Part shown: positions 12,912-62,456 of the stretch, in pieces
Numbering within the stretch: position 1 is the first letter of the stretch
Layout of the letters: the number at the start of each line of letters is the position of its first letter
IMG/VR virus record: IMGVR_UViG_3300028591_000076
Coordinates: 96,001-160,000 of that record
DNA: 64,000 nt
DNA from: a virus
Lineage: Duplodnaviria; Caudoviricetes
Strand: one strand, 5' to 3'
The notes under the pieces: generated by a model
Database searches by the model: none
The model's input: the letters and a program-made list of their open reading frames with translations, nothing else
Told to the model about the DNA's origin: nothing
Program-made: the position numbers and the translations under genes

Positions 12912-15900
12912 TTATAGGATTTTATTTACTATTTCTGACTTATATGTTCGAGTAATTTCTTGAACATTAGAATAATTATAGTCTACTGTCGTATCAAAAT
13001 AAGTAGTTATTGAGGCAGGTGATCTTAAGCTAACATCTAATCTATTTGGCATTATTATACTACTAGCATTTGCTATATTACTCATAGTAAATTTATAGCT
13101 ACTATCAATATATTTACCGCTTTGTTTATTACTACTATTATCAATAGATGCATTAAGCTGAAAATCAACAGCATCTTTAATTTTTTTATAGTCCGATAAA
13201 TTGTCTGTTATACTTACTAGACCATAATTATAATTATTAGCTATATAATTTAAGGTGAGACTACCCTTAGTGCCAGAAGTATTATAGATTACGCTACTTA
13301 TATTTATAGATCTAGGCTCTTCACTAATACTTTCAGAAAATTCTGTAATACAGTATTTATTTATAATATTGCCATTATAGTTAACTGTAGCTTCTTGGCT
13401 TAATGCGCTTGTGACATTAGCTACTTGAGATGTAGTAGACAAATCAAGTGTGATAATATTATTAGCGCTCGTTAAAATGAGATTATTACTTGAAATTGAT
13501 GGTGTATATGTGGCAGTAGCCCAAGTTGGAGATCCATTAACTACAGTTCTCTTTTGTATTTGTATACTACCAGTTGATATGAAAGTAAGATTACTATCCA
13601 CGTAAAACGAGATTGTTCTAGAATTATTACTATTTACTCTATATATCTCATCATCACTAATTTTTATTTGTTGACCTTGTGTTGGTAATGTTACCGTTAT
13701 CGTATTTATGTAATAATTTTTTAATGAATTAGCTGGTTTACCTAAAATCAATGAATTTACAGAAGCACTATTAGTTAGCTCTATTATATCATTATATGCA
13801 GTTCTAGGAACTAATTCACCATTAACAGTAGATGTTCTATCTGTTAGTTTTGTTCCATCATTTGTATAGAATACGTCTTTCTTATTTTCTAATTCTATGA
13901 TATTTTTACCATTAGAGAGCACATTTGATATATTTTCTATTACTCTTTGCTTATAAGTAATAAATGCTGATTTTCCAGATTTATTATAAATAATAGGTGT
14001 AATTTGGATAGTATGTTCTTTACCATCAAAATTATCAATAACATAAGTAAAAGTATTATCGCTTTTTTCTATAATAGAAATATCACCATTAGTAATAGCT
14101 ACTTTATCAGCATTAGCGGATATCTTAATGGCTAAGTCCTTATTAGATAATTCTGCGCCATTACTTGCAAATTCTACATTAGTAAGAGTAGCATCATCCT
14201 GATTATCATAAACTTGATAGCTCTGTATCCAGCTAATTGATACCCTATTAGTATTATTGTCAATATTAGTAATTGTTCCAATATAAGGCTTACCTAATAT
14301 TTGATTATCACCAAAAGTTTTCTCTGGTATAATAATAACTGTCTGATGGTTATTATCTACTTGGAAAGATCCAAATACTTCAGCTATAAGATTTGTATCT
14401 TTAGTACCCAAATTAGAAGATATACTAGCATTTGGATTTGTTGTTGATAAATAGAAACCAGTTGCGCCATCTTTTAAGTTATTAGCCAAAAGAGCAACTC
14501 TTAATGTATTATCTGTATATGTTATATTTATATTATTTAAATCTAAACTTGGCTCATTTCTTTTAAATATAGCCTTTAAGTATAAATCATCAGAGCTAGT
14601 CTCATTAGACCATAAGTCTCTAGTAATCGATGTAATATAATCGAGGCTATATGTACTATTTTTACCAAACTTATATTTATATCCAATAAATCTATATGCA
14701 TCAAAATCTGGATTTAATAAATCTACTGGTATATCAGTAAGCTTATTATTAGCCTCATAATATTGAGACCTTAATACATTAGAAATGCCAAAGTTATTTT
14801 CATCATAATTTTCAGATTCAATATGTATTATTGGTAATTTATAAGTATAAGTACGTCTAATTCTAGTATCACAAGTAAATAAATGTGTATCAATGCTTTC
14901 ATCTGAAATAATATCATCAGCATTTGCTGACTCGATTTGCCAATTAGATGTTTTAATAGATGCATGATTTGTTATACTAGGTACTTTACTAGCACCAAGA
15001 TATGAATTATATGGAATATCAACAGAGTAAATATTTGGCTCAAATATATTTTGTCCGCCCACAGTCCAACTACCAGCATTATTTAAGTCGAATGTAATTT
15101 TAATTAACTTCTTTCTATAAGTAAACTTAATAGTATCATTGCCACTAATAGTTACTGTTTTACCAGAGCTATTACAAGAATATCCATTTGTTGGGTATTC
15201 ATCATTAAATAGAGGATATACTGTTATAGCTTGGCCAAATTTACAAGAAATAGTTGACTCAGTAGCAGAACCAATCTCATTAAGAGATGTTCTGTATAAA
15301 GTATTATATGTTATACTAGAATTAGAGCTATTTTCTGTTGACTCGTATTCATCTACAATTTTTACATTACAGATATTTCTATGTATATATATTCTAACAA
15401 TACTAGAGCCATCACCTTTTATAATTGCATTTTCAATTCTAGATAAAGAAAATCCTTCTGGTACTTGATAATTTTCTGGAAAAAGTGCATTACTAAAATT
15501 TGTTTTATCCCCAGTTTTACCATGAGCAGTTTCAGACTTAATAAGTCTATAAGAGCAAGTATCATTATTAGCATCAGTAAATATACCAGTAGACTCAGGA
15601 GTTTCTTCCCAAGTTTGAAGTTCAAATGAAGTTGTATTAGACTCAGACCAAATAGCCTTTAATGTTATATCATGGTCTATTGTATCCGCAGGCGTAAATG
15701 TATTTCCTGATATTGTACCATCTGTAGCTTGGCTTAATGACCAGCCTTCAAAATTATAACCAGCTTTAGAAGGCTGTCCTAACTTAATAGGCTCGTTAGC
15801 TTTTAATATGAATTTATCATTATTGGCTATAATACCACCCTGTAAGTCATAGTCTAAATGAAAATCAGCTTTTTCCCATTCGGCTACAAGAGAAACGGGA

Positions 15901-17153
15901 CTATTCATATTTGCAAAATCTTCTGGATTTATAATAAATTGATGAACTAAGCTACCAATAGTCCAACCATTAAATTTATAGCCATTTCTTCTTGGAATAG
16001 GTAATGTAAATGTTGTGCCATACTTGTAAGTATTTATTGTATCATCTGAGCCATCTAAATTACCACCATTAAGATTATAATTTAATTTATATACATTAGG
16101 CTCAAAATGAGGCCTAAGATAAATATGTCTATCTATATTTTCATTTGATGCTTCAAAAATCTGGTCATATACATTATTTAAGTTTTGGTCGCTCTTACAA
16201 GTTATTACCTGGCCAAACTTATCTGTTGTAGTCCAATAATCAAGTGTATGGCCTGCTTTAGTAGGTAAAATAATATTAGTATCATCTACAGAAGCTTCTA
16301 ATAGTGTAGTATTTTTATTATATTCTATAGATGGACTAAATATTGACTCATTACTTGCATTATAACAAGTTACTTCATAATTATTACGAATCCAATTTGC
16401 TACACATAATGTATCATAATTTGTTCCAACTGGAATCATTGAATCAACAGAAATATTTTCATTTAACTGTTGAGAATGTAAATCATCTGTAATCTTATAT
16501 ATTTTCCATCCATTAAATGTATAGCCTAGTTTAACTGGCTGTGGAGCAACATATGCGATAGAGTTTACAAAACTTGTTCTACCCTCATTACCACTATTCC
16601 AAGAACCACCATCTAGGTCATATCTAATAGCGAATACTTGAACATTGCTTACTTTATTCTGAACTTGTTTTCCAAATTCTTTTAAGTTTGTAATAAGAGC
16701 CTTTTTTGTAACTAGTGAGTCCAAATCGTCTTTATCACGATGTTCCTTTATATATTCCTCTGGGCTTAATTTTCCCATATAATTTACAATATAGAGCCTG
16801 CTAGTTGTATCGTTTATTTCTGGGGTTAAAATAAGTTTAATAAAGCAGTCTCTTACTTTAGTTTCTATATTTTCATTAGCCTCTAAAGTAGTTTTAAGAG
16901 TAAACTTAACTGTTATATCATATTTATGATTTGTTTCTTTAACATTAGACGTTGGCTTAAAAATAAACTTAGTATTTGTGCCCTCACCAGCTTTTTCGCA
17001 ACTTGCAATACCATTGTTGCTTATATATACGCAGCTTATTTCATTAAATGTTTCATTTTCTGGTATATTAAAAATGTCATTTAATGGAACATCAAATGTT
17101 GTTCTACCAGCCACATAATTATCTAGAGTGATTTTCTTTATATTGTTAGCCAT
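12912..17153 (-). CDS. Large virion/surface protein with InlB B-repeat (Listeria-Bacteroides) domains
   Basis: Repeated YxLxGG...PxKxGYxFxGW units (PVKLGYTFNGW, PTKAGHTLDYW, PRRNGYKFNGW, PSKAGYNFEGW); last gene of a tail operon. Confidence 0.7.
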   Translation of the reverse strand: MANNIKKITLDNYVAGRTTFDVPLNDIFNIPENETFNEISCVYISNNGIASCEKAGEGTNTKFIFKPTSNVKETNHKYDITVKFTLKTTLEANENIETKVRDCFIKLILTPEINDTTSRLYIVNYMGKLSPEEYIKEHRDKDDLDSLVTKKALITNLKEFGKQVQNKVSNVQVFAIRYDLDGGSWNSGNEGRTSFVNSIAYVAPQPVKLGYTFNGWKIYKITDDLHSQQLNENISVDSMIPVGTNYDTLCVANWIRNNYEVTCYNASNESIFSPSIEYNKNTTLLEASVDDTNIILPTKAGHTLDYWTTTDKFGQVITCKSDQNLNNVYDQIFEASNENIDRHIYLRPHFEPNVYKLNYNLNGGNLDGSDDTINTYKYGTTFTLPIPRRNGYKFNGWTIGSLVHQFIINPEDFANMNSPVSLVAEWEKADFHLDYDLQGGIIANNDKFILKANEPIKLGQPSKAGYNFEGWSLSQATDGTISGNTFTPADTIDHDITLKAIWSESNTTSFELQTWEETPESTGIFTDANNDTCSYRLIKSETAHGKTGDKTNFSNALFPENYQVPEGFSLSRIENAIIKGDGSSIVRIYIHRNICNVKIVDEYESTENSSNSSITYNTLYRTSLNEIGSATESTISCKFGQAITVYPLFNDEYPTNGYSCNSSGKTVTISGNDTIKFTYRKKLIKITFDLNNAGSWTVGGQNIFEPNIYSVDIPYNSYLGASKVPSITNHASIKTSNWQIESANADDIISDESIDTHLFTCDTRIRRTYTYKLPIIHIESENYDENNFGISNVLRSQYYEANNKLTDIPVDLLNPDFDAYRFIGYKYKFGKNSTYSLDYITSITRDLWSNETSSDDLYLKAIFKRNEPSLDLNNINITYTDNTLRVALLANNLKDGATGFYLSTTNPNASISSNLGTKDTNLIAEVFGSFQVDNNHQTVIIIPEKTFGDNQILGKPYIGTITNIDNNTNRVSISWIQSYQVYDNQDDATLTNVEFASNGAELSNKDLAIKISANADKVAITNGDISIIEKSDNTFTYVIDNFDGKEHTIQITPIIYNKSGKSAFITYKQRVIENISNVLSNGKNIIELENKKDVFYTNDGTKLTDRTSTVNGELVPRTAYNDIIELTNSASVNSLILGKPANSLKNYYINTITVTLPTQGQQIKISDDEIYRVNSNNSRTISFYVDSNLTFISTGSIQIQKRTVVNGSPTWATATYTPSISSNNLILTSANNIITLDLSTTSQVANVTSALSQEATVNYNGNIINKYCITEFSESISEEPRSINISSVIYNTSGTKGSLTLNYIANNYNYGLVSITDNLSDYKKIKDAVDFQLNASIDNSSNKQSGKYIDSSYKFTMSNIANASSIIMPNRLDVSLRSPASITTYFDTTVDYNYSNVQEITRTYKSEIVNKIL

Positions 17154-17159
17154 TTATTT

Positions 17160-20100
17160 TTATTCCTCAATCCACTGAATGTCAATTCTTCCAAAGTCTA
17201 CATCAGATGTTGTATCATCATCTTCATTATCTGACTCACCATCGCCACTTGCTGTGGCTCTATTTTGTAAGCCTAATAAACTTCCAGTTATATCTTCAAG
17301 AGCATTAAGTCTGTCATAAATTGACATTTCTCTAGGAAGATTTAACTGTTCAAAATTATTATAATTTAATGATTTTTCTTCACCATCAATTGTAACTTTA
17401 GATGTTTTATATCCATGATAATTAGTCTCAGTTCCGAGCTCTCTACTAATATCTTTAATTGCATTATCCAAATTGAATATAAGAGTAAGAAGATTTATAT
17501 CCTGATTTGGAGTACCAGAATGGCCATATGGAGATTTAGCAGAAGCTTCATTATCTGTATAAAGGTTGCCGTTTCTTGTAGCATTTGCTGAGAACTTATG
17601 TCCAGCTAATTCGCCTTCACCAGTGATTAAGAACTTTCCGCCATATTTTGTTTCTGATGCAACAGAGTCAGAAATCTTATCATTTGTTCTTTCGTCTATA
17701 ATTTTATCTAGACCAAGTAAACTTCTTAAGTGTCTAATTTCATCTTCGAGTACTTCAAAGCGAGACTTTCTATATGCGTTCTCATTACCAAGGAAATCAT
17801 TAAATAATGTATTACGGTTATTATAACCAATAGCATGACCAGTTCTACCCTCATTTTTTGTATTTTCATGAGACTGGTTTTCATAGTCATAATTATATCG
17901 GCCACTATCAATATCATAGTAAATATGATTTTTACCATTACCAGTTGCATAATTAACATTGATAGAGTCATTAACTGTTTCTTTACTCTGCTCAACTGTT
18001 TCATCAGATAAAGCTTTATCGCCATAATTTACTGGCTGTGGCACATAATACATTTCATGTACTATATCGTCAATAATATTTCTTGTATCACCATTACCTG
18101 AGAATCTAGTATTTGCATTATCATTTACTTCAGAAGTAGTTTTTGATAATGTATATTCCGCGGTAGTATCAGAAGTACCATCATTATAGTTAACTACTAT
18201 TACGTTTCCTTTTATTTCAGCAACTGTACCAAATACTACTTTTAATGCGTCTTCGGTATATACTTTATCACCTACTTTTGGACTTAAAGTAGTATAGAGC
18301 TTTTTAGTTAACTTGGACTCATTAGTCCACTCTTTTGAACCTAAATATCCAGCTGTACTTATATTAGAACGGTGTTGGTAATTTGTTTGAATTGTACCCG
18401 CAGAGTTTTCGCTACTACCAGCTATACCAGAGTCAGTACCATAAATTGTGAGTAACAAGTCTTTAACATCATCTGTTAAAGTATAATTCTTTCTTATGTT
18501 ATCAAAATTCTGAGTACCATCTGCATTTATACGTAATTCATCATAATTATCTAATGCATTATCAGTAGCATAATCTTTACCAAGTATCTTTCTTACTGCG
18601 TCATCGTAGTGTTCTGTTTCTCTTAATCTCTTAAGAAGCTGCTTTATTACATAGTTTGCATTAACAATAGGATTTGCAGTATCTAAGTAATAGTTATTAT
18701 TAGGTATCTGTTTATATGTAATAATATCTGGCGCAAGGCTAGAAGCATCTTCTACTAACTCATATTCACCAGTATCAGCATTTCTGATATATACATTTTC
18801 TGTATCATTAGATGTGTTTACAATATATGTTACAGGTAAACTGTCATCATAGCCAGCAGCAAGTTCAGCGCTTCTTTGTACATCCCAAGCATTATTATCT
18901 TTACCAAATACTGATAAGCCTAACCATTTATTGAGAACAAATATAAACTCTTCAATAGAATAAGTTTTATTTTTCTTATTAGGATTTTGTGCATCATCAC
19001 TGTAGTCCGTAGATATAGTATCATCATTTAGAGACTTATTAGTATCTGTTTCAAATGCTGATTTTTGGCAGAGCTTTCTTACCACATTATCGAGTTCAGA
19101 CTCAATTTTTTCAAGACGAGTAGTAATAGTTCTTGTATCACGTAATGTCTGCTCAGATAATACTGTGTCTGTATTATCATATATCTGTCTAAAATATGCG
19201 GGACCAATAGCGTCAATAAGAACATCAATAATACTTGCGTAATTATATTCTTCTATTGAGTCTGGTACATTTATTTGTACACTTACATTTTTATTTTGGA
19301 TAGCAGAACCATTAACATTATTAACAAGAGTATCCTCACTTGTTATCTCGCCTGTTCTATCATATTCTGTTTTACCTTCTTCATGAATTGGCTTACCAAT
19401 ACCACTAATAAGAAGATTTTTGCCATTAAACTTACGTCCAAGAAGAACTTGATTTACATCACCTTCTCTATACTGAATTGGACTATCTACTTTAGATGTT
19501 TTTCCGTCTTCAGTAATATTTTCACCATTTAATGTATAATTATGCTCATCATGTCTTGTAGTTAAGATATAATTATATAAATCACGAGAAAGTTGGTCAA
19601 ATCTAGAAAGTCCAGTATATGTAGATTTCTGTTCATATGGCTTAGAAGACTGCTCTACGCCTTCTGCTATATCTAAATCTTTATATCTTTCAGACTCTAT
19701 TTCATTTTGTGTAGTTGCAACACCATTTTCTACATTAGTTGTTGGCTCGCCATCAAAATAAGCTTCTCTAATAAGAGTTCCTATATTAGCTCTTATTGTA
19801 TTAAGACGTCTTGGGGTAGAGTCAATATTATCTGTGCCATTTACTGTATATGTAAGAGCATTTACTTTTGTGCAGATACGAGCTAATGCATCAATTAAAC
19901 CATTAAATTCATATCTTTCATTTTCAGGTACAAGGTTATTTTCTGTATTAGACTTAAATGTATCACCATCTTTTTCGAAAGTCTGATTTTTCTCTAAGTC
20001 TACTTTTGACCAGTTACTATGAAGGTCAGCAGTTTCTTCTTCAGCGTCTTTCTTTGCTCTACCAGTAATTGGGTCATATATTGTAGGATCAATATTATTT

Positions 20101-23100
20101 TCTTGTCCGTCATCATTACCTTTATGTGTTTCATTTATTTCATAAGGATATGTTGAAGAATCTAATATTGATATATTATTATCAGAAGAACTTGCCTTAA
20201 TATCTTTATCAAAAGTTGCGCCTTCAATCTCTTTTTCTAATTCGTCTATTCTAGAAAATGAAGTTTGTGTTGAGTTATCATCTTTACCATTTAAGTCATT
20301 AAGTGGGTCAGCAGTACCATAAAGTTCTAATGACATTGCTCTGATTAAGCGGTTTAAACCAAGATGCGTAGCTTCTGGAGTTACTTCTGGAAAGTTAGGT
20401 AATTCAATTTTATCTCTATTACCTGGAATAGTTGTTGCGTCAGAACCAAATGTAGATGCTTCAACTTTTAATAAACGCTCTTGTGTTTCTTTTGCTGCCC
20501 TTAAAAGAAGGCCAACTGAAGAAATTATACTTTGAGTATTTTCAGCATTATCTGTAATTGCATTTAAGTAATTCTTTATTGACTTAAGCTCTTCATCAGT
20601 ATAATTAAATGTATTATCTTCTGTGTAGTGTTGAGTAGAGCCCCAATTTAAGTCTTCAGAATTGAAAATGTCTCTCTTATCTTCACCTGATAAGTTATCT
20701 CTAGCATCATTTACTCTTTCAATAATTATACCGATATATTTTTTATACCAAGATGGCTCATTTTTATAACGCCAGAATGCTAATGGCATTTCATATGCTG
20801 CTTGTAATGCTGAGCCAATATAATCATCTTGGGTATCATCTGCCATTAAGTTTGTTGTATAATTAAATCCGCCAGCGTTATTCAAGTCGCTAGATGTGAG
20901 ACTTTGTTTATCTTCACCATATACATTCTTATATGCTACCTTAGAACCAACGCCTATATTACCAGCTGTAATATTTATTGGTAGGCCATTTTCGTCAACA
21001 AATGATATAGATTTATTATCTTCGTCAGTTATACCAAAATTATATTTTGATATGATTTTTGCATTTCTACCTTTAATGCCCTTAATATCATCAAATGTAG
21101 AAATTTGAGAAGCTATTGTCTCAATATGAGATAATCCAGTATTTGTTTCATTTACCTTATACTGTTCTGATGAGTAGAATGGTATTTCAGTACCTATTAA
21201 GCTATCGTTTTGGTGAACTTCAATACCTTCACTAGAAGTAATATATCTTTGTCCTTTACCTTCACCAAGAGGATCATCACCATAATATCTATATGGAATA
21301 TAGGATGCTGTACTTTCATCAGTACTTGTGGTCTTATTTAGCTCACTGTTAATAACGTCATTTGACTTTAACTGTGTACTATTATGTGTAGCTAAATAAA
21401 GATTATTTAATTTAGAAGCATCAATATTACCACCGATACCAAAATTCATACCGTGTACTGTATTTGGACTAACAGCTTCATTTGGTTTAACAGCATTTTT
21501 ATTTTCGTGCTCTAATACCTGAGCTTTAGTAACTAATGCATTATCTGGCATTAAAGCAATAGGAATTACATTTCTTTGATTACCATGGTCATCTACACTA
21601 GCATTTATAATAAAGTTTTCAATAGTATATGTTTCCGTGCCAGTATTAACATCAGATGCCTCGTAAGTAATAAATTGATTTTTTGTTAAGCCTTCTGGAA
21701 GACCAATACCAAATCTAATCTTAGTATCACTCTTAATAGGTAATTCGTCTTTTGCAGCAATATTGACTGTCTTAGCTGGCTCATCTTCTTTACCAATAAG
21801 AATCTCGCCAATATCTTTTCTTGCTACAAGCTTTTTAACATTATATCTTGTTTCAATAGCGTCTAATACTGCAAGACCAGTTACTGCTTTAGTAGTGTAA
21901 GGATTATTATTTTCATCTAAAATCTTATTTTTTAGGTATGCAGAAATAACACCATTTAAGTCAAATTGTTGTTTAAGAGTTTCTCTTCTACTAACTACAA
22001 TTTTCCATGGTTTTCCTGCCATACTTGTTGGTACAACATTACTAGAAGTTTGGTAATAAATACCCATACCATCTTTTATGTCCGTACTTAAATAGTATGT
22101 TGAGTATATATTTACTGAGTTTGCAACTTCTTTCTCGATTTTCCATTCGAAACCATAAGTAGTTGTATTATTAAAGCTACTAAATCCACTTCTGATTTCT
22201 ACCCAATGATATAAGCCATCAGTACGTGATGTTTCGCCATATTCTGGGTCAATATATAAATGGATATCTAAATTCTCTAATGTTGGGTCTTCAATACCAT
22301 CAATTTTTGTACATAAATCACAAATAGCCGATATATCAAATCTATCATCTATTACATAGTCTTTTTCTGCTGCGCTAACACCCTTTGGATTATGTACAGA
22401 ATATTTTGCAATCTGAGGATATGATATTCCTGGTAATTTACCATTTATCTGAATTTCGTTATTATCACCAGCATCAAAGAAATTACCAAATTTTCTTATA
22501 TATGGAATTCTAGGCGTAGACTCATAAATACCAGAATCTGCAGCTTTAATCTGCATTATATTATATTCTGAATATTCTGTTGATGATGTACATTTTGGAA
22601 TTATAAAGTGGTCTTCTTCCTCATATATAGGATTACCTTCATCATCTTCACCAATTTTATATTTTCCAATATTTAATTTACTTTCTGGAAACCAAGCCTT
22701 TAGTCTTGTTAATAATTTTTCATAACTGGCAACAGCATAACGAGTCTCACCATCCATAAGTAAGAACCCATATTCTGCTGCTGGACTTTCGCCACAATAA
22801 GGAGCAGGCTTCATATATCCTACTGGTAAATCACCAGTATCGTCTCTACGTCTTGCATTATCACAATGGATTAAGAGCTTATTTGAGTCTTGTACATCTA
22901 ATACTTTTACAATTGTATCATAAGCTTCTAATGGCATGTCTATTACACGGCCATTTCTACCTAAGAAGTATTCTTTTCCTAACTCTTGATATTCATTGGT
23001 TTTATGAGTGAATAAACCATCATGCATGAATAAACAAATAGTTCCCTTAGGCACTACTTCATCAAGTTTATTATTGTACCATACACCTATAATATTTTGT

Positions 23101-24410
23101 CTTGATCTTAATCTACAATCTGCTGTTACAACAGTTCCTTTATTGTAAGAAGAACCATTATGGAAAGTAACGCTATCTTCAAAGAGTGGCTCAGCAGAAT
23201 TAGATATATACATATAGTAATATCCACCTGGCTCAGAAGACTCAATATCAAAACATAAAACGCCTTCTGAAACATTTGAATTATCCACTGATACATTTAA
23301 GTTTACACCTGTAAGGTCCATCCATGCAGTCTTAAATGCATTTTCTAAACTTGCTTTTGAAAGATTTAATACGTCAGCATCTAAAGTATTCCTTAGATCA
23401 GCCTTAACAATTTTTATTGCATGTTCAGCTTCGTCTTCTGCTAGGTTTTTATTAAGCGCATCATTATATAATTTTGCAATAGCTAGGAAAGCCGCATCTT
23501 CTTGAACCATAGAATTCTGAACTTCAGCAATACTAAATTCATCGCTAAATGTTACAAGAACGGTTTCTCCATCCATTTTTTGGAAACCAATAAAAGATGT
23601 TTTTGGATTATAATTATAATTTGGATGAACAGCAAAAATGATTTTGCTCTTAAATGCAACGTCTTCTTCAGAGCCTAATGCAAATACACGACAAGGGTCA
23701 GATGATGGTACTAAAACGTCTTCACCTAAAACGCCCTCTAAAATAGTATTATCAATAGGACCTCTATCATCACCCTGTATAGCTATTTCAATTTTTGTTT
23801 CAACTTGGTCAGAATTTTTAACTGGGGCGTCAGTTAAATATCCAAGGAGAATAAAATTATTATAAGTCTTATAAATATTTGACTCATTAACTGTTAATGA
23901 ACCTGGCTCTACACCATCAAATTCAGCATTTGCAACGTAGACTTTTTTACCTACATCTTTATAAGTAAATCCAGGATCATAAACTAATCCATTTTCTATT
24001 TCTTCACTATCAAGGTCTTTATTATAAGTAAAACTACCAAAACCTTGAACATGTATTAATTTTTTACCTAATTCTTCTTCTGTAACTGGCTCATGTGCTA
24101 AACCAATACATCTTGTATGTTTTGACGTATCAGTAGGAACTATATATGAGTAAGGGTCATCATTTAAGAAATAATTTTCATTATTAAAATATTTAAGACC
24201 AGCTTCTTTTAAGTCTGCCTCAGTAGCAACTGAAACTGCAAAACCTCTTTTTATAGGAAGAGCTGCTCTATATGAGCTTAAAGGCTGAGACCACTGGATA
24301 AATTCATCTTTATCCGCATATCTAAGTTGATTATTTCTATCATCAATGAAAGTTAAGCCTTCTTTCATTCTTTTTGTTAAATCTTCTGAGTTATTTAATA
24401 CGTCTGACAT
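17160..24410 (-). CDS. Giant tail fibre-like protein (tail collar-like and S74 chaperone-like segments, coiled coils)
   Basis: LPVGYMKP...GFLLMDG...YEKL collar-like motif; WRYK...YIGIIIERV...GLLLRAAKETQERL S74-like motif; repeated RxxxLE heptads. Confidence 0.65.
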   Translation of the reverse strand: MSDVLNNSEDLTKRMKEGLTFIDDRNNQLRYADKDEFIQWSQPLSSYRAALPIKRGFAVSVATEADLKEAGLKYFNNENYFLNDDPYSYIVPTDTSKHTRCIGLAHEPVTEEELGKKLIHVQGFGSFTYNKDLDSEEIENGLVYDPGFTYKDVGKKVYVANAEFDGVEPGSLTVNESNIYKTYNNFILLGYLTDAPVKNSDQVETKIEIAIQGDDRGPIDNTILEGVLGEDVLVPSSDPCRVFALGSEEDVAFKSKIIFAVHPNYNYNPKTSFIGFQKMDGETVLVTFSDEFSIAEVQNSMVQEDAAFLAIAKLYNDALNKNLAEDEAEHAIKIVKADLRNTLDADVLNLSKASLENAFKTAWMDLTGVNLNVSVDNSNVSEGVLCFDIESSEPGGYYYMYISNSAEPLFEDSVTFHNGSSYNKGTVVTADCRLRSRQNIIGVWYNNKLDEVVPKGTICLFMHDGLFTHKTNEYQELGKEYFLGRNGRVIDMPLEAYDTIVKVLDVQDSNKLLIHCDNARRRDDTGDLPVGYMKPAPYCGESPAAEYGFLLMDGETRYAVASYEKLLTRLKAWFPESKLNIGKYKIGEDDEGNPIYEEEDHFIIPKCTSSTEYSEYNIMQIKAADSGIYESTPRIPYIRKFGNFFDAGDNNEIQINGKLPGISYPQIAKYSVHNPKGVSAAEKDYVIDDRFDISAICDLCTKIDGIEDPTLENLDIHLYIDPEYGETSRTDGLYHWVEIRSGFSSFNNTTTYGFEWKIEKEVANSVNIYSTYYLSTDIKDGMGIYYQTSSNVVPTSMAGKPWKIVVSRRETLKQQFDLNGVISAYLKNKILDENNNPYTTKAVTGLAVLDAIETRYNVKKLVARKDIGEILIGKEDEPAKTVNIAAKDELPIKSDTKIRFGIGLPEGLTKNQFITYEASDVNTGTETYTIENFIINASVDDHGNQRNVIPIALMPDNALVTKAQVLEHENKNAVKPNEAVSPNTVHGMNFGIGGNIDASKLNNLYLATHNSTQLKSNDVINSELNKTTSTDESTASYIPYRYYGDDPLGEGKGQRYITSSEGIEVHQNDSLIGTEIPFYSSEQYKVNETNTGLSHIETIASQISTFDDIKGIKGRNAKIISKYNFGITDEDNKSISFVDENGLPINITAGNIGVGSKVAYKNVYGEDKQSLTSSDLNNAGGFNYTTNLMADDTQDDYIGSALQAAYEMPLAFWRYKNEPSWYKKYIGIIIERVNDARDNLSGEDKRDIFNSEDLNWGSTQHYTEDNTFNYTDEELKSIKNYLNAITDNAENTQSIISSVGLLLRAAKETQERLLKVEASTFGSDATTIPGNRDKIELPNFPEVTPEATHLGLNRLIRAMSLELYGTADPLNDLNGKDDNSTQTSFSRIDELEKEIEGATFDKDIKASSSDNNISILDSSTYPYEINETHKGNDDGQENNIDPTIYDPITGRAKKDAEEETADLHSNWSKVDLEKNQTFEKDGDTFKSNTENNLVPENERYEFNGLIDALARICTKVNALTYTVNGTDNIDSTPRRLNTIRANIGTLIREAYFDGEPTTNVENGVATTQNEIESERYKDLDIAEGVEQSSKPYEQKSTYTGLSRFDQLSRDLYNYILTTRHDEHNYTLNGENITEDGKTSKVDSPIQYREGDVNQVLLGRKFNGKNLLISGIGKPIHEEGKTEYDRTGEITSEDTLVNNVNGSAIQNKNVSVQINVPDSIEEYNYASIIDVLIDAIGPAYFRQIYDNTDTVLSEQTLRDTRTITTRLEKIESELDNVVRKLCQKSAFETDTNKSLNDDTISTDYSDDAQNPNKKNKTYSIEEFIFVLNKWLGLSVFGKDNNAWDVQRSAELAAGYDDSLPVTYIVNTSNDTENVYIRNADTGEYELVEDASSLAPDIITYKQIPNNNYYLDTANPIVNANYVIKQLLKRLRETEHYDDAVRKILGKDYATDNALDNYDELRINADGTQNFDNIRKNYTLTDDVKDLLLTIYGTDSGIAGSSENSAGTIQTNYQHRSNISTAGYLGSKEWTNESKLTKKLYTTLSPKVGDKVYTEDALKVVFGTVAEIKGNVIVVNYNDGTSDTTAEYTLSKTTSEVNDNANTRFSGNGDTRNIIDDIVHEMYYVPQPVNYGDKALSDETVEQSKETVNDSINVNYATGNGKNHIYYDIDSGRYNYDYENQSHENTKNEGRTGHAIGYNNRNTLFNDFLGNENAYRKSRFEVLEDEIRHLRSLLGLDKIIDERTNDKISDSVASETKYGGKFLITGEGELAGHKFSANATRNGNLYTDNEASAKSPYGHSGTPNQDINLLTLIFNLDNAIKDISRELGTETNYHGYKTSKVTIDGEEKSLNYNNFEQLNLPREMSIYDRLNALEDITGSLLGLQNRATASGDGESDNEDDDTTSDVDFGRIDIQWIEE

Positions 24411-38501: not shown

Positions 38502-38567
38502 AAATTATATATTAGTAATTTTATATATTTTTTTGTTAATCTACATATTATTCATAAGGAGTTAACT

Positions 38568-40490
38568 ATGGCAAAATTTAGTACACTTACACATAATGGC
38601 CCAATATTTCCACCAGAATATGAAGTAAAGGGATTTAAGTTAGCAAATGAAGAGCTTTCGCCACTTGCGGAAGAAATGATGTGGCATTATGCTGCTAAGC
38701 GTGATACTGATTATGTAAAAATTGAAAGATTTAATAAAAACTTTTATAGTTGTCTTAAGCCGGAGCTTACAGCAAATCAGCAGCTTCTCGAATTTCCTAA
38801 GGACTATAAAAAGCTTATTGATGATATGTTTAATAAAAATCAGCAGATTAAGGAACAAAAAGCAAATTCAGCAGTAAAAAAAGTAACAAAGAAAGAATGG
38901 AAACTCGCAGAAGAAGATGCATCTCTTAAAAAGAGACTCGAAGCTCGCCAGAAAAAATATGATGAAGCAGACGCAGAAAAAACTGCAATGAAAGAAAAGT
39001 ATGGGTTTGCTTTTAAGGATGGCAAAAAAGAGCCTCTTGGCAGTTTTATGATTGAGCCTCCGGGAATTATTATGACTCGTGGCGATTCGTCTATTCTTGG
39101 TATGTGGAAATATCGTACTGTACCAGAAGATGTAATTATTAACTTTATTCCACTTCCAGAAAAAGAATGGGATGCTCTTCCAAAATCTTATCAGGATGTT
39201 GTTCTTGGTAAAGCTGAAATGAATACACTTTTACCTGAAGATCAGGAAAAACTTAAGGAGATGAAAATTCCATTTGCTCCAAGAGCTCCGGAAGGTCATA
39301 ATTGGAAAAAAGTAGTTTCTGATAATAATTCTTGTCAGACCGTAATGTATTTTGTTCAGGTTGGACGTCCAGAATTTGGTATCAGCCCGCGCTATAAAAG
39401 AATTATTTTCGCTGCTAAGTCTGATACTAAAAAAGAAAAAGATATGCTTAAATTTGAAAAAGCAAGAAAGCTTGTTCAGATGTGGCCAGATATGGAAAAG
39501 CATATTATGAAAGGTATGGTTTCAACTGATGCAAAACGTCAAGAAGCTGCAACTATCGCGTCTCTTATTAAAACGACTGGTATTCGTGTAGGCAATGAAA
39601 AAGATGAATCAGCCGGATATGCAGAAACAGTTGGTGCATCTACTCTTGAAGTAGGTAATATTGAACTTATTGCTGATTACAAAGTGAAGCTTGACTTTAT
39701 GGGTAAGGACTCAGTTCACTATGAAAATACTGTTCAGCTTGACCAGCTTACTTATAATGCGCTTAAAAAAATTATTGGAAATCGTTCAAAAGACGAGCTG
39801 GTATTTAAGAATGCTTCATCAAACGATGTTGCGGCATTCTTGAAAGAGTTTATGCCAGAATGTTCACCTAAACTTTTCCGTTCAGCTTATGGATGTAAAC
39901 TTATTTCAGAAGAACTCCATAAGGCAGAAAAAGATGGAAAACTTACGAAGGCTATGCCAACTTCAAAGAAAATTGCAGTTTATGATAATGCTAATCTTGA
40001 AGTTGCTAAAAAATTAAATCATCAGCGTGCGCTTCCTAAGAACTTTGATGCTCAAATGGAAAAGCTTGATAAGCAAATTGAAGATGCTATTAAGAAAGAA
40101 GCAGAAGTAAAAGCTAAAGCTGAAGCAGAACTTAAGAAAGTCTTAGAGCAGGCTAAACTTGCTAAGAAAGAATGGGAAGGTGAAAAGCTTACAGCAGCGC
40201 TTGAAAGGATTAAAGAGCGTAAAGATAAAATTACCGCTAAAGTAGAAAAGTCGGAAGAAAAGATTGAAAAGCTTAAAGATAAGCGCGAAATGAAAGATAA
40301 AGCAAAAAACTATTCTCTCACCACATCCCGTACTGCTTATTCTACACCAGCTCTTGCGGTAGCTTTCTGTAAAAAGTTTGATATTGATATTTCAAATATC
40401 TATTCTAAGTCGCTTCAGGAAAAATTCAATTGGGCAATGGATACTCCAGAAAGTTATTATGATAATTTCCCTAAAGAAGCTAAAAAATAA
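38568..40490 (+). CDS. top1: DNA topoisomerase IB, long (eukaryote/archaea-like) form
   Basis: TLTHNGPIFPPEY, IEPPG..TRG, PEDVIIN, GHNWKKV, KFEKARKL, IRVGNEKD, FMGKDS, KLFRS, NHQR, coiled-coil linker, TSRTAY, IYSKSLQEKFNWA; SD AAGGAG. Confidence 0.93.
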   Translation: MAKFSTLTHNGPIFPPEYEVKGFKLANEELSPLAEEMMWHYAAKRDTDYVKIERFNKNFYSCLKPELTANQQLLEFPKDYKKLIDDMFNKNQQIKEQKANSAVKKVTKKEWKLAEEDASLKKRLEARQKKYDEADAEKTAMKEKYGFAFKDGKKEPLGSFMIEPPGIIMTRGDSSILGMWKYRTVPEDVIINFIPLPEKEWDALPKSYQDVVLGKAEMNTLLPEDQEKLKEMKIPFAPRAPEGHNWKKVVSDNNSCQTVMYFVQVGRPEFGISPRYKRIIFAAKSDTKKEKDMLKFEKARKLVQMWPDMEKHIMKGMVSTDAKRQEAATIASLIKTTGIRVGNEKDESAGYAETVGASTLEVGNIELIADYKVKLDFMGKDSVHYENTVQLDQLTYNALKKIIGNRSKDELVFKNASSNDVAAFLKEFMPECSPKLFRSAYGCKLISEELHKAEKDGKLTKAMPTSKKIAVYDNANLEVAKKLNHQRALPKNFDAQMEKLDKQIEDAIKKEAEVKAKAEAELKKVLEQAKLAKKEWEGEKLTAALERIKERKDKITAKVEKSEEKIEKLKDKREMKDKAKNYSLTTSRTAYSTPALAVAFCKKFDIDISNIYSKSLQEKFNWAMDTPESYYDNFPKEAKK

Positions 40491-40495
40491 AAATC

Positions 40496-40514
40496 AGGGC
40501 TCATTTTGAGCCCT
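40496..40514 (+). terminator. Hairpin after top1 (weak U tract)
   Basis: AGGGCTCA-TTT-TGAGCCCT. Confidence 0.5.
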
Positions 40515-40569
40515 ATAAATAATGAAAAAGCTTCATACTAGAGATTTTGGATATAATAGGAATTAAATT

Positions 40570-41590: not shown

Positions 41591-42370
41591 ATGGCAGTTC
41601 ATATAAAATCTAGAGAAGATATAAATGACGCAATTCGTTATATTGTAAAAGAAAAAGGTGGCGGAGACTTAGAATATAAAGGAAGAGTTGTAACATTTAC
41701 ATTAAATGGTTTTGACTTATTTATTTCTAATTCGCCATATAGTTTTAAGATTAGGTCAGTTGATTATAAAGAAAGTTTACAAGACGTTTATTATGCAGTA
41801 GAACATCAGCTATGCGTAAAAGAACAGTATGAAAAAGTTCTTACATCACATGATGAGTATGGTAATAAGCTTATTTATTATTATGATAAAACTCATAATA
41901 AAGTAGTTATGATTAAAGCAGTCCTTATTAAGGAAGGCGATAAAGTAGTAGGCTATAATTATAAATTTTTTAGAGAAGAAAAAAATATTCCTAGGTATAA
42001 AGAAATTTATGATAGATATGAATATTATAATAAAGATTATGGTATAGTAGACGATAATTATGTGCTCCAGGAATGGGATAAGGAAACAATTAAAGATACC
42101 GATATCGATCCAGAAGACTATAGACGCTATATTATAAACGAGTTCAAAGGTAAAAAGATTTCACCGAATAATACGCCTAATCTAGGAACTTATCATTATA
42201 AGTTCTATTTTAAATGTGATAATTGTGGAGTTGATACTTGGGAATGGCATGTACATAATTCAGGTGCTCTTATAGACTATTTTCCTCCATTTTTATGTAA
42301 AGAATGTAAAGAAAAACAAAAAAATGGTATATTAGGTCAGCTTAGAAATCAGCCAGGAAGATTTAATTGA
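41591..42370 (+). CDS. Hypothetical protein with C-terminal Zn ribbon
   Basis: SD AGGAG; CDNC...CKEC. Confidence 0.6.
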   Translation: MAVHIKSREDINDAIRYIVKEKGGGDLEYKGRVVTFTLNGFDLFISNSPYSFKIRSVDYKESLQDVYYAVEHQLCVKEQYEKVLTSHDEYGNKLIYYYDKTHNKVVMIKAVLIKEGDKVVGYNYKFFREEKNIPRYKEIYDRYEYYNKDYGIVDDNYVLQEWDKETIKDTDIDPEDYRRYIINEFKGKKISPNNTPNLGTYHYKFYFKCDNCGVDTWEWHVHNSGALIDYFPPFLCKECKEKQKNGILGQLRNQPGRFN

Positions 42371-42897
42371 AAAAATTAACTTTTTCAGCGCCAGTAACAA
42401 TATTTTTAATTATAATTTCATTTATAATTCTTGTTACTGGTAAGTCTGCTTTATGCGCAACACATAATAGAATTGACCAAAATTTAATTTTACATATTTT
42501 TGGTCATTCTAATTTTAATCATTGGTTTGGTAATATTACACTATTAGCTATAATAGGCCAGTCGGTAGAAGATAAATATGGCAGTTGGACTACATTAATT
42601 TTAGTAATTTTAGATGCTATAATTGTGGGATTAGCTTATTGTTTTTTACAGCCTGTAAGCTGTTATGGTTTATCATCTGTAGTATATATGTTTGTTGTAT
42701 TGAATACATTTCCCTCTAAAAAGGATAATAGTATATCAATACTTACTATACTAATAATGATTATTTTTATTTGCCCAGAAATTATTGGCCTTATAAGGAA
42801 TAATGATAATATTGGACATTTGGCTCATCTTATTGCGGGATTAAATGGGCTAATTTTTGGTATTATATATAGCGCATTAAAATTAAGAAAAGAATAA
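42367..42897 (+). CDS. Rhomboid family intramembrane serine protease
   Basis: HxxxxHxxxN (HSNFNHWFGN), GLS catalytic Ser, AHLIAG catalytic His; multiple TMs; TTG start overlapping the previous stop. Confidence 0.8.
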   Translation: MKKLTFSAPVTIFLIIISFIILVTGKSALCATHNRIDQNLILHIFGHSNFNHWFGNITLLAIIGQSVEDKYGSWTTLILVILDAIIVGLAYCFLQPVSCYGLSSVVYMFVVLNTFPSKKDNSISILTILIMIIFICPEIIGLIRNNDNIGHLAHLIAGLNGLIFGIIYSALKLRKE

Positions 42898-45836: not shown

Positions 45837-47717
45837 TTATGCATCTTTTACTTCATACTCAACGTCATCTGATGTTCCACTATTTGGCGCAGTATTAGTA
45901 CTTTGATTAGCCTGCTGACTTTCATACATTTTTTGACCAATAATATATGAAGCCTGCTTAGCATCTTCCAGAGCTTTTTTCAAGTCACTAATATTATTTT
46001 TATCTTTCTCTTCTTTCAATTTAGAAAGCGCAGCTTCTACTTTAGATTTTTCATCCGAAGATAATTTATCGCCATAATCTTTTAATGACTTTTCGGTAGA
46101 GTTTATAAGTGAATCAGCCTCATTTTTTGTATCTGCCATTTCCCTTATTTTTTTATCTTCTTCCGCATGCATCTCAGCATCCTTCTGCATTTTTTCAATT
46201 TCTTCCTTTGAAAGGCTAGAAGAAGCTGTAATTGTAATTTTCTGGTCCTTACCTGTTCCTTTATCCTTTGCTGAAACGCTAAGAATACCATTACTATCCA
46301 ATTCGAAGGATACTTCAATTTGTGGCAGTCCTCTAGGAGCTGGTGGAATACCATCAAGATTAAAATTACCAAGTGTCTTATTATCAGCAGCCATAGGTCT
46401 TTCGCCCTGTAATACATGAATAGTTACAGCTGTCTGATTATCTGCATATGTAGAGAATACTTGACTTTTCTTTGTAGGGATTGTAGTATTCTTATCAATA
46501 ATTTTTGTAAATACACCACCCGCAGTTTCAATACCGAGTGAGAGAGGTGTTACATCAAGAAGAACTAGGTCTTGTTTTACGTCACCACTAAGTACACCAC
46601 CCTGAATTGCAGCTCCAATAGCAACAGCTTCATCAGGATTTACTGATTTATTTCCTTCTTTACCAAATACTTCCTTTACAAGAGCCTGAATAGCAGGAAC
46701 ACGCGTTGTACCACCAACAAGGAGAATATCATCAATATCTGAAGTTGATAATCCAGCATCTTTCAAAGCTTGAAGCATAGGAGCACGATGACGTTCTACT
46801 AGCGGAGCAATAATTTGCTCGAATTTTGCTCTGGAAATTTCCATCTGCAAATGCTTTGGACCTGTTGCATCCGCGGTAATAAAAGGTAGGTTAATAGATG
46901 TAGTAGTTGAGCTAGAGAGTGCAATTTTAGCATTTTCTGCTGCTTCCTTAATACGCTGAAGAGCCATAGGATCATTCTTCAAATCTACACCATTTGTTTT
47001 CTTAAAGTCATCACAAATGTAGTCTACAAGCGCATTATCAAAGTCGGTACCACCAAGCTTTGCATCGCCCGAAGTAGCCAAAACTTCAAAAACACCATCA
47101 GAAACATCAAGAATTGAAACATCAAAAGTTCCACTTCCGGCGTCGACAACAGCTAGCTTCTTATTAATATCCTTTTTATCAAAACCAAATGCTAATGCTG
47201 CAGCAGTTGGCTCAGCTACAAGACGTTCTACTTCCAAACCTGCAATTTTACCAGCATCCTTTGTTGCTTGTCTTTGCTTATCATTAAAATATGCTGGAAC
47301 AGTAATAACAGCTTTTGTAACAATTTCGCCCAAATAGTCTTCTGCTGTTTTCTTCATTTTCATCAAAATTTGAGCAGAAATTTCTTCTGGGGATAAATCT
47401 TTTCCATCAATGTTTATCCTAGCTGCTCCATTAGCGCCTTCAGTAACCTTATATGGAACAATATTTATCCAGTCTTTCATTTCTGAATAATTATTTCCCA
47501 TAAAACGTTTAATAGCATAAATAGTATTTTTTGGATTTGTAATTGCCACATTTTTTGCTGACTTACCAACAATTATTTGTCCATCTTTATATGAAACAAA
47601 AGAAGGAGTTGTTCTATCGCCCGCATCATTAACAATAACAGTTGGCGTTCCATTTTCAATTATTGATACACAACTATTACCTGTGCCTAAATCGACACCC
47701 AAAATCTTATTAGTCAT
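45837..47717 (-). CDS. dnaK: Hsp70 chaperone DnaK
   Basis: [56 protein letters not shown]. Confidence 0.97.
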
Positions 47718-48933: not shown

Positions 48934-49464
48934 TTATTCTGAGTCTTTTTCAGTTACTTCTACATCTTCTGCGTCTTTCGCATTTGCAATCTGCTTTGGT
49001 TCTTCTTTCTTTCCAAAGAGAACGCGATTCTTAGCAAGTTTTTCATTGCATGGAACCATAATGCTGAAAATACCATTTTTCAAATCAACCGTTGCTTTAT
49101 CAGCATTAAAGTAAGTTGGGTCAATATAGAAAGAGATATCTGATGCTTCGCGAGAATATTTAATTCCGCCCTGAAGATACTTTCTCTTTTCTGTTGGCTG
49201 TTCTTTCTTTAATGTAACAGTAATATAGTTGTCTTTATAATCGCACTGAATTTCATCTTCAGTATAACCGGCAACTGCGCATTCAATATGAAGCGCGCCA
49301 TCTTCTGTTCTATAAATATCTGATTTTGGATAGTTAGATGAACAGATAGAATTTGTTACTTTAGTGGGAATATCACTAAAACCAATTGAGAAAAATGGAT
49401 CATTGAAAAATGAATCAAGAATAGAAGCTGCTGTTACAGCTGCGGGATAGTTACGATTACTCAT
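48934..49464 (-). CDS. Small heat-shock protein Hsp20/alpha-crystallin
   Basis: NYPKSDI, IECAVAGY, KYLQGGI, ATVDLKNGIFSI. Confidence 0.88.
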   Translation of the reverse strand: MSNRNYPAAVTAASILDSFFNDPFFSIGFSDIPTKVTNSICSSNYPKSDIYRTEDGALHIECAVAGYTEDEIQCDYKDNYITVTLKKEQPTEKRKYLQGGIKYSREASDISFYIDPTYFNADKATVDLKNGIFSIMVPCNEKLAKNRVLFGKKEEPKQIANAKDAEDVEVTEKDSE

Positions 49465-61226: not shown

Positions 61227-62456
61227 ATGGTAGATTTAAAACAAGCTAATAGAGACGTTGCTAATTTTTGTTTCGCAATGAAAAAAGAAATGCGTACATA
61301 TAAAGTATTTTGTGCTGGTGGATATAATTCACAAAATATAAATGAGCAACTATATAATTATATATTAAATAAATCAGAGGAACTTATAAAGCAGATAAGA
61401 ATATCTGTTATAAAATTTTGTAGAGCTAATCCATCTAAAGCTGACCAAACATTTAAGAAATTTGTAGATGAAGGCTTTAATAGTCAAAATATTACTGAAA
61501 AAGTATTTAATGCAACTTTACAGAAGTTTTATGCAATATCTAGTAATACAAGCTCACCTACTAATCCGTCCACTAGTAAACCAGTGGATACATCAAATAA
61601 TGTAGTTCAAACAAAATCTTCATTAAAAATTATTGATGGCTTTATGGTTGATACTAAATCTGGATTTATTCCAACTATAAATTATGTATCAAAAAGATAT
61701 AAAGAATTTAATAAAAAATATTTTGAAGACCAATTACCTAGTGTACCTATAAAAATTGCGGATACTAAAGGCTCAGCTGGCATGGTAAGATTTGCTTATA
61801 GAGGTGGCGTACGTACAATAGTAGATTTTAGAATATCACAAAAATACGGATATCCAGAAGAAGTAGTTTGTAATACTATTTTGCATGAGATGATACATGT
61901 ATACCAACATGCTATTCTACATGAGTCTCACAGAAATAGTGACGCGCATGGTATATCATTTATTAGAGAAATGAGAAGAATTAACGCATTTGGATGGAAA
62001 ATATCTACACATGTCACTGAAGAAGAACATAGTACGGCTATTCTTACAGATTTACAAAAATCAAAATTACATAATTTCAAATTTTATGCATTCTATAAAT
62101 CAAACAAGCTATGTATGGGAAAAATTAGAATTTCTAATTCTTCTAGACTAAAATCACCAGACCTAGCTTGGTTTGCGCCTAAAAAACCAAAATCTGCAGT
62201 ATTTGTTAGTATGCCAGAAACAAAAGGTCTATCATATAGCTATAGTGGTCATCCACTTACAATAGATGAAGTTAAAAAACTTTTAGCGGATGAAGAAATA
62301 TCTCTTATTTCTGCGCCTGATAAAATTAAAGAAAAATTGGGCTTAATAAATAAGGTAAGGGAATCTATTGATAAAGAAGATGAAAATGTTCTATATGTAG
62401 ACGGTGATTATAGAATAGTTATTGAAAATGGTGAAAGAATAGAGGAACTATCATAA
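61227..62456 (+). CDS. SprT-like zinc metalloprotease domain protein
   Basis: FNKKYF, TILHEMIH, AHGISFIREMRRIN; ACTAATT 6 nt before ATG. Confidence 0.8.
   Translation: MVDLKQANRDVANFCFAMKKEMRTYKVFCAGGYNSQNINEQLYNYILNKSEELIKQIRISVIKFCRANPSKADQTFKKFVDEGFNSQNITEKVFNATLQKFYAISSNTSSPTNPSTSKPVDTSNNVVQTKSSLKIIDGFMVDTKSGFIPTINYVSKRYKEFNKKYFEDQLPSVPIKIADTKGSAGMVRFAYRGGVRTIVDFRISQKYGYPEEVVCNTILHEMIHVYQHAILHESHRNSDAHGISFIREMRRINAFGWKISTHVTEEEHSTAILTDLQKSKLHNFKFYAFYKSNKLCMGKIRISNSSRLKSPDLAWFAPKKPKSAVFVSMPETKGLSYSYSGHPLTIDEVKKLLADEEISLISAPDKIKEKLGLINKVRESIDKEDENVLYVDGDYRIVIENGERIEELS

Follow-up and report, generated by a model that had tools for sequence, protein, structure and literature searches.

Does a tailed phage of bacteria encode a complete topoisomerase IB (TopIB) of the long type known from eukaryotes and archaea, and is such a gene a recent capture or an old possession of phages? 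This question is raised by a gene at positions 38568 to 40490 (plus strand) of a 64,000-nt stretch of viral DNA, here called the window, which covers bases 96001 to 160000 of the 239,841-bp linear IMG/VR record IMGVR_UViG_3300028591_000076 (GC content 30%, CheckV completeness 76%). In reviews, the range of long TopIB is given as eukaryotes and Thaum-, Aig- and Bathyarchaeota (PMC2621148; PMC8371274), and this distribution has been taken to date the long type to the archaeal-eukaryal ancestor (Brochier-Armanet et al., 2008; PMC2621148). The gene described here is very probably that of an active long-form TopIB of a tailed megaphage with a bacterial host, presumably a gut or rumen spirochaete; in this reading, activity, role and host are what we infer.

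Domain architecture and active site

The open reading frame (ORF) comprises 640 codons and a stop codon without internal stops, and it was assigned to the long-type TopIBs using Pfam, phmmer, sequence alignment, an AlphaFold model and Foldseek. All three Pfam domains of long TopIB were found with scores well beyond the curated cut-offs. Topoisom_I_N (PF02919) matched residues 3-193 (E 6.5e-29, 101 bits compared to a cut-off of 25), Topoisom_I (PF01028) residues 285-516 (E 2.2e-50) and Topo_C_assoc (PF14370) residues 563-630 (E 1.2e-20). The strong Topoisom_I_N match agrees with the first-pass annotation of the window, in which a cap region had been read from short motifs. Among all PDB sequences, the best phmmer match was human Top1 (E 8e-54, residues 3-193 and 237-631), as expected from the likeness of the 640-aa protein to human Top1 noted earlier.

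The cap or DNA-binding region (38574-39146, plus strand) corresponds to human residues ~203-400 in the phmmer alignment and includes, in the model, long 'nose-cone' helices at residues 78-145. It is followed by the catalytic core (39420-40115) and the C-terminal domain (40254-40457), both on the plus strand. The window motifs IRVGNEK, DFMGKDS, KLFRS, LNHQRA and TSRTAYSTP pair by phmmer with the human motifs of R488, K532, R590, H632 and Y723, respectively. The proposed catalytic pentad is hence intact and consists of R340 (codon 39585-39587), K380 (39705-39707), R438 (39879-39881), H485 (40020-40022) and the catalytic tyrosine Y591 (40338-40340), all on the plus strand. These five residues are invariant in an alignment of 84 sequences with a mean column identity of 31%.

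The AlphaFold2 model calculated from this alignment reached a predicted local distance difference test score (pLDDT) of 96.5 and a predicted template modelling score (pTM) of 0.88. Foldseek aligned it to the human Top1-DNA clamps 1K4T, 1RRJ and 1A36 over ~640 columns with a target-normalised TM-score (TMt) of 0.85-0.87 and a root-mean-square deviation of 3.2-3.7 Å. The long coiled-coil linker that had been suspected from the sequence is modelled as two antiparallel helices at residues 493-535 and 538-578 (40044-40301, plus strand; pLDDT 94-98), and it superposes on the human linker in the full-chain alignment. Between PEDVIIN and PEGHNWKKV, orthologue comparison and the model revealed a lineage-specific insertion of ~36-38 residues (~201-238; 39168-39281, plus strand), modelled as three short helices with a pLDDT >94. 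A 647-aa relative (L011) has this insertion as well, but human Top1 and a 605-aa orthologue (L013) lack it, and it varies even between close relatives.

By sequence and predicted fold, the protein is a member of the long eukaryote/archaeal-type TopIBs: cap, core and C-terminal tyrosine domain were identified in the sequence, linker and clamp by structure prediction. The gene is under purifying selection. The ratio of non-synonymous to synonymous substitution rates was 0.08 compared to the L013 orthologue and ~0.2 compared to L011.

The carrier of the gene

Judged by the gene content of the record, TopIB is carried here by a tailed phage with a bacterial host and not by a giant eukaryotic virus. 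A baseplate wedge gene (phrog_6, E 5e-14) and tail-fibre genes (up to E 1e-23) were identified in the record using PHROGs, and an SLT transglycosylase is encoded at window 10379-10732. The homing endonucleases of the record, the NrdD gene interrupted by one of them and the genes for GroEL, DnaK and Hsp20 (all described below) also count in favour of such a carrier. Shine-Dalgarno (SD)-like 4-mers were found 5′ of 40% of the 267 ORFs in the 240-kb record compared to 4% at random positions, which is an approximately 10-fold enrichment. The TopIB gene itself has the bacterial SD sequence AAGGAG (38556-38561, plus strand) 6 nt 5′ of its ATG, which was already recognised in the first-pass annotation and is evident from direct sequence reading.

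Two further genes of the record concern the host. An intact bacterial flagellin (Flagellin_N/C, E 5e-39) is encoded at record 198413-199261 (L008:18413-19261), near a spirochaete FlaA-like filament sheath protein (E 3e-8; record 195724-196557, L008:15724-16557). Flagellin and FlaA are odd cargo for a phage and, by sequence, point to a spirochaete host.

A carrier from a host domain that already possesses long TopIB, i.e. a virus of archaea or a giant virus of eukaryotes, is highly unlikely. Such a virus would fit the unrecognised major capsid protein, terminase and sheath, the GC content of ~30%, which would also suit rumen methanogens, and the binning of one relative in a 'Thermoplasmatales' metagenome-assembled genome (MAG). 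It would not fit the myovirus-type baseplate wedge and tail-fibre matches, the bacterial flagellin with the spirochaete-specific FlaA, or the SLT transglycosylase, GroEL/DnaK and Listeria-Bacteroides repeat protein. In addition, the double jelly-roll capsid of nucleocytoplasmic large DNA viruses (NCLDVs; PF04451) had no match in the 240-kb record, while the same profile matched the NCLDV-like record G022. The 117-kb 'Thermoplasmatales' contig (L095, CAZYLG010000001.1) carries the same kind of baseplate wedge gene, and by its sequence it is evidently a mis-binned jumbo phage.

The source is a metagenome-assembled linear record, which leaves room for a chimera or a contaminant joined to phage DNA. 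The 87%-identical orthologue L013 was found in a different sample, on a contig of 553,723 bp, and the gene order is common to both sequences on both sides of TopIB: genes for proteins of 920 and 131 aa, Top1, proteins of 209 and 258 aa, the rhomboid protease, a 344-aa protein, Hsp70, a helicase and an AAA protein. A 69%-identical copy (L011) is located on a third assembly, the 940,564-bp scaffold_1 of ENA ERZ28612970 from sheep rumen. Since independent assemblies carry the locus, and since composition and SD site resemble those of the flanks, a chimeric assembly is very unlikely, to the point of being negligible.

The orthologues on sequences of 553,723 and 940,564 bp also imply that the CheckV estimate probably falls far short of the real genome size. 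Around TopIB, the L011 scaffold has a phage-like, mostly unannotated gene content. The largest phage genome has been quoted as 841 kb (bioRxiv 10.1101/2025.02.27.640493). If the 940-kb scaffold is one genuine phage genome, it would top this record; a concatemer or a mis-join is also possible.

Distribution and phylogenetic position

The TopIB gene turned out not to be a singleton, since metagenomes contain hundreds of homologues that have not been described, many of them on jumbo-phage contigs. A search of 5.8 billion proteins resulted in 276 full-architecture matches, and an exhaustive search of 50% clusters in 368 clusters with E <1e-30. In IMG/VR, 159 viral contigs carry a relative. About half of the IMG/VR matches listed are giant-virus MAGs (GVMAG), and other matches are jumbo-phage records. 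Five jumbo-phage TopIB records of 143, 178, 261, 329 and 388 kb, of which the 329-kb record has terminal repeats and is 100% complete, contain a baseplate wedge gene, and in none of these five was an NCLDV capsid found.

A statement that viruses carry the short form would hold for poxviruses and the mimivirus enzyme only. It fails for NCLDVs, in which long TopIB is, by sequence, common; the NCLDV-type proteins are 27-32% identical to the window protein. Until now, bacteria, poxviruses and mimivirus had been credited with the short form only.

For the phylogenetic analysis, a FastTree tree of 199 representatives (65% identity clusters, 551 columns) and an IQ-TREE tree of 101 selected rows (LG+G4) were calculated. 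In both trees the window protein was placed in a clade with a support of 98, here called clade A (74 rows in FastTree, 43 rows in IQ-TREE). Apart from the 640 aa of the window protein itself, clade A consists of compact proteins of <640 aa and contains no named eukaryote. It includes three baseplate-bearing phage records (L015, L065 and L039, the latter with terminal repeats and 100% complete). The clade A members examined are located beside 7-deazaguanine genes and genes for dUTPase, RecA, NrdD, PolA, a ThyA with an intein, ribosomal protein S21 and a baseplate protein resembling T4 gp10. Apart from the window protein, clade A members thus lie in phage modules for replication or for nucleotide metabolism. 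The phages of 178 and 388 kb fall, together with the mis-binned 117-kb contig, into a second phage clade, B (support 95).

The Nitrososphaeria form a clade of their own with a support of 93 (Shimodaira-Hasegawa-like approximate likelihood ratio test, SH-aLRT). Eukaryotes and NCLDVs together form a clade with a support of 100, in which Smittium, Liquidambar, Entamoeba and Compsopogon are the members with labels. A branch with a support of 95 parts clade A from everything else, including the Nitrososphaeria and the eukaryote/NCLDV clades. In the approximately unbiased (AU) test, a placement of all 57 phage-like rows on one side was not rejected; the constrained tree was better by 4.2 log-likelihood units (p 0.54). 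The phage-borne sequences can be described as one side of the unrooted tree, with archaea, eukaryotes and NCLDVs on the other, and ~74 of the 199 clusters of the sample fall into the phage-borne branch.

On these trees, the window protein is part of a branch of long TopIB that is large, old and carried by phages, and it is not a recent eukaryotic capture. A recent horizontal acquisition from a eukaryote, e.g. a rumen ciliate or a fungus, or from a giant eukaryotic virus would make the gene silent on deep Top1 history. The rumen and gut metagenome samples are rich in low-GC protists and NCLDVs carry the same architecture, both of which would suit such an origin. It is nevertheless extremely unlikely, given the identity of only ~27-32% to named eukaryotic (P0100) and NCLDV-type proteins, the 43 to 74 members of a clade without any named eukaryote that is separated from the eukaryote and NCLDV clade by branches with a support of 95-98, the missing eukaryotic N-terminal extension, and the GC content and SD site, which match those of the phage. 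An origin by recent transfer, with a eukaryotic or NCLDV donor, was excluded, since the window protein lies outside the eukaryote and NCLDV clade and starts directly at the cap motif.

A more far-reaching reading is conceivable, although we regard it as doubtful: tailed phages of bacteria would be a large ancient reservoir of long TopIB, the eukaryotic and Nitrososphaeria Top1 would derive from a viral enzyme and not from the archaeal-eukaryal ancestor if the root of the tree, which is unrooted here, lies within or beside the phage side, and in megaphages TopIB would take the place of type II topoisomerases and be the only swivel.

Several relatives deserve mention in their own right. In the 91-kb phage contig IMGVR_UViG_3300026549_000059, TopIB is split into halves of 303 and 280 aa (L078:10001-12496). 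The break lies after the residue equivalent to 367, just 5′ of the LDFLGKDS active-site motif, and the 786-nt insert contains an antisense ORF for a 234-aa GIY-YIG homing endonuclease; no Rfam match was found in this insertion. The same break point was found in N-half clusters of ~306 aa (P0151, P0154, P0155, P0225) and C-half clusters of ~265 aa (P0124, P0170, P0171, P0193, P0255), which suggests, at the sequence level, that conserved two-piece TopIBs exist. Two short contigs with a TopIB gene, in 'Rickettsiales' and 'Catalimonadaceae' MAGs (L096, L097), group with NCLDV sequences, and public MAGs appear to hold mis-binned viral contigs here. The TopIB of a 156-kb IMG/VR record annotated as 'provirus' and 100% complete (G021, L083) groups tightly with the chromosomal enzymes of Nitrososphaeria; this record may be a piece of an archaeal chromosome or the provirus of an archaeon and not a phage.

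In the Nitrososphaeria, the TopIB domain was detected by hidden Markov model (HMM) search in 53 of 81 sampled genomes. A pattern scan of GTDB was insensitive, with 1 Nitrososphaeria genome compared to these 53 of 81, and was not used to conclude absence from bacteria.

No described phage homologue could be found, which is in line with the first-pass annotation. The tblastn search of 50,697 GenBank phage records gave no match at 1e-5, although any records almost identical to the window may have been masked in this search, and at E 10 only Bacteroides phage BS162P1 was retrieved (E 0.1). PHROGs contains no family for TopIB, the full-length matches in BFVD are NCLDV entries only with no phage entry, and a full-text literature search gave no paper linking long TopIB with phages. 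Likewise, megablast of 20 kb of the window against known phages gave no match. A phage lineage with a complete eukaryote/archaea-type TopIB, as first proposed, is supported by domains, active site and carrier evidence. Within a well-known family, the enzyme represents a new lineage carried by phages and not a new kind of machine.

The phage-borne branch adds a third, viral pool to the scenarios of Top1 origin. Furthermore, a compact Top1 without a nuclear localisation signal (NLS) is experimentally tractable for mechanistic work. The finding also suggests the means by which genomes of 300-900 kb are replicated in bacteria, namely an ATP-independent swivel that can take out positive supercoils, possibly without a phage type II enzyme.

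Proposed function

Since the protein is homologous to human Top1, the following mechanism is proposed. Cap (residues 1 to ~280) and core (~285-490) would clamp shut around duplex DNA, and Tyr591, together with R340, K380, R438 and H485, would nick one strand and form a 3′-phosphotyrosyl link. The broken strand would then swivel, braked by the coiled-coil linker (493-578), before being religated. By analogy, the protein should act as an ATP-independent controlled-rotation swivelase on both supercoil signs; positive and negative supercoils would be relaxed with neither ATP nor Mg being required. During infection, it would relieve the torsional stress that arises when a genome of several hundred kb is replicated and transcribed, and it may be the phage's own, perhaps only, topoisomerase. 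Type IIA or IA topoisomerase domains were not found in the 240-kb record, which is a fragment, and two essentially complete jumbo phages with a TopIB gene had no match to PF00521. From these negative results, TopIB is suggested to be the general topoisomerase of these phages.

An active enzyme could also have another main role, for example in recombination and junction resolution, as a virion-packaged early-transcription factor or as a tool acting on host nucleoid topology. Vaccinia TopIB is packaged in the virion and able to resolve junctions, and the TopIB gene of the window lies outside an obvious replisome operon. We consider such a role unlikely, since the clamp-plus-linker architecture is that of processive relaxases and relatives adjoin RecA, NrdD, dUTPase, PolA and helicases. 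No type IIA domain was found in complete TopIB-bearing jumbo phages, which suggests a general swivel role.

Several points weigh against the reading of the gene as an active TopIB of an old phage lineage. Sheath (PF04984) and Terminase_6C (PF17289) had no match in the 240-kb record, and the profiles tried recognised no capsid, terminase, portal or sheath gene, so that the class assignment rests on baseplate, tail fibres and translation signals. T4 Gp23 (PF07068) gave no match in the record either, which is uninformative since the control set also gave none. The gap in capsid, terminase and sheath is treated here as the result of divergence and of the incompleteness of the record, in which many large ORFs are without a PHROG match. 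In the active site, Ala590 precedes the catalytic tyrosine, at a position occupied by Asn722 in human Top1 and by Asn in most relatives. This exchange could, from its position in the sequence, shift drug sensitivity or the cleavage-religation balance; loss of activity would not be expected. The trees are unrooted and were calculated with a site-homogeneous model. Finally, since the record is a fragment, other topoisomerases may be encoded elsewhere in the genome of this phage.

Neighbouring genes and other features

The neighbours of the TopIB gene are small unknown ORFs and genes for chaperones and a rhomboid protease. The rhomboid intramembrane protease (PF01694, E 1e-15) is located at window 42367-42897, three genes 3′ of TopIB, and this position is kept in L013. 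The chaperone set is a full one, lies within 45 kb and consists of GroEL (4151-5833; phrog_5725, E 5e-122), DnaK/Hsp70 and Hsp20, the listed loci being 4151-5833, 45837-47717 and 48934-49464; the phage DnaK/Hsp70 is ~60% identical to bacterial DnaK. Among the neighbours named in the first-pass annotation, GroEL and the SLT transglycosylase could be recovered, while the sheath and the HU-like gene (PF00216) were not found by profile search.

Two SprT-like metalloprotease genes were identified, one at window 61227-62456, 21 kb from TopIB, and one at L008:17469-18335. Eukaryotic SprT-family proteases (Spartan/Wss1) clear trapped Top1-DNA adducts. By analogy, the pairing of TopIB and SprT in the phage may be functional.

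Two giant ORFs are located on the minus strand. The ORF at 12912-17153 (1413 aa) contains Listeria-Bacteroides repeat domains (E 1e-21), and the ORF at 17160-24410 (2416 aa) has no Pfam match. The record contains many homing endonucleases, one of which splits the anaerobic ribonucleotide reductase NrdD into an N-terminal part of 476 aa and a C-terminal part of 376 aa (record 172529-176212). No tRNAs were found in the window, and an Rfam scan gave no match around the TopIB gene. Just 3′ of its stop codon, a 9-bp GC-rich hairpin (40495-40515, no strand assigned) was detected by consensus scan only. It is a possible terminator or RNA end, the function being uncertain since the T-run is that of the minus strand.

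Comparison with known topoisomerases

The short TopIBs of variola (2H7F) and Deinococcus (2F4Q) share the catalytic chemistry and the core fold with the window protein, but are only ~310 aa in length and have neither cap nor linker. Their structures cover only the catalytic part, residues ~310-430, with a query-normalised TM-score (TMq) of 0.24-0.29, and in the phmmer search of PDB the poxviral enzyme was likewise restricted to this region (E ~1e-5). The window protein is therefore not nested among the short TopIBs.

A 'phage-specific topoisomerase I' was described for the jumbo phages PaBG, Lu11, phiRSL1 and Motura (Iyer et al., 2021; PMC7824862). This enzyme and the short TopIB of Bacteroides phage BS162P1 are likewise phage-encoded topoisomerases of the tyrosine-recombinase fold, proposed to act on the topology of large genomes. 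However, the PaBG/Motura-type enzyme has no sequence match to the window protein at E 1e-5, and its BFVD structures align only partially (TMq 0.31-0.37, 13-21% identity), while the 254-aa BS162P1 protein matches at E 0.1 only.

The long TopIBs of NCLDVs (GVMAG records; Dasosvirus and Marseillevirus LCMAC in BFVD) are also virus-encoded and have the full-length architecture (TMq 0.65-0.74). They differ in their eukaryotic hosts and in their nesting with the eukaryotes (support 100), with an identity to the window protein of 27-32%. The archaeal long TopIBs of Nitrososphaeria/Thaumarchaeota are compact (520-580 aa), with the same architecture and likewise without N-terminal extension; an example is PDB 6Z01, which we take to be the Caldiarchaeum enzyme. 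In contrast to the window protein, they are chromosomal and not viral, and they form a separate clade on the eukaryote side of the branch with a support of 95.

The closest known structure is that of human Top1 (Topo70; 1K4T, 1A36, 1RRJ), which has the same three Pfam domains, the same pentad with similar spacing and the same clamp fold with a coiled-coil linker. The window protein is ~26% identical to it, has no charged N-terminal domain or NLS, and carries the ~36-residue insertion after PEDVIIN. The distance between H485 and Y591 is 106 residues compared to 91 in the human enzyme, and the residue before the catalytic tyrosine is Ala compared to Asn. Unlike human Top1, the window protein branches outside the eukaryote and NCLDV clade.

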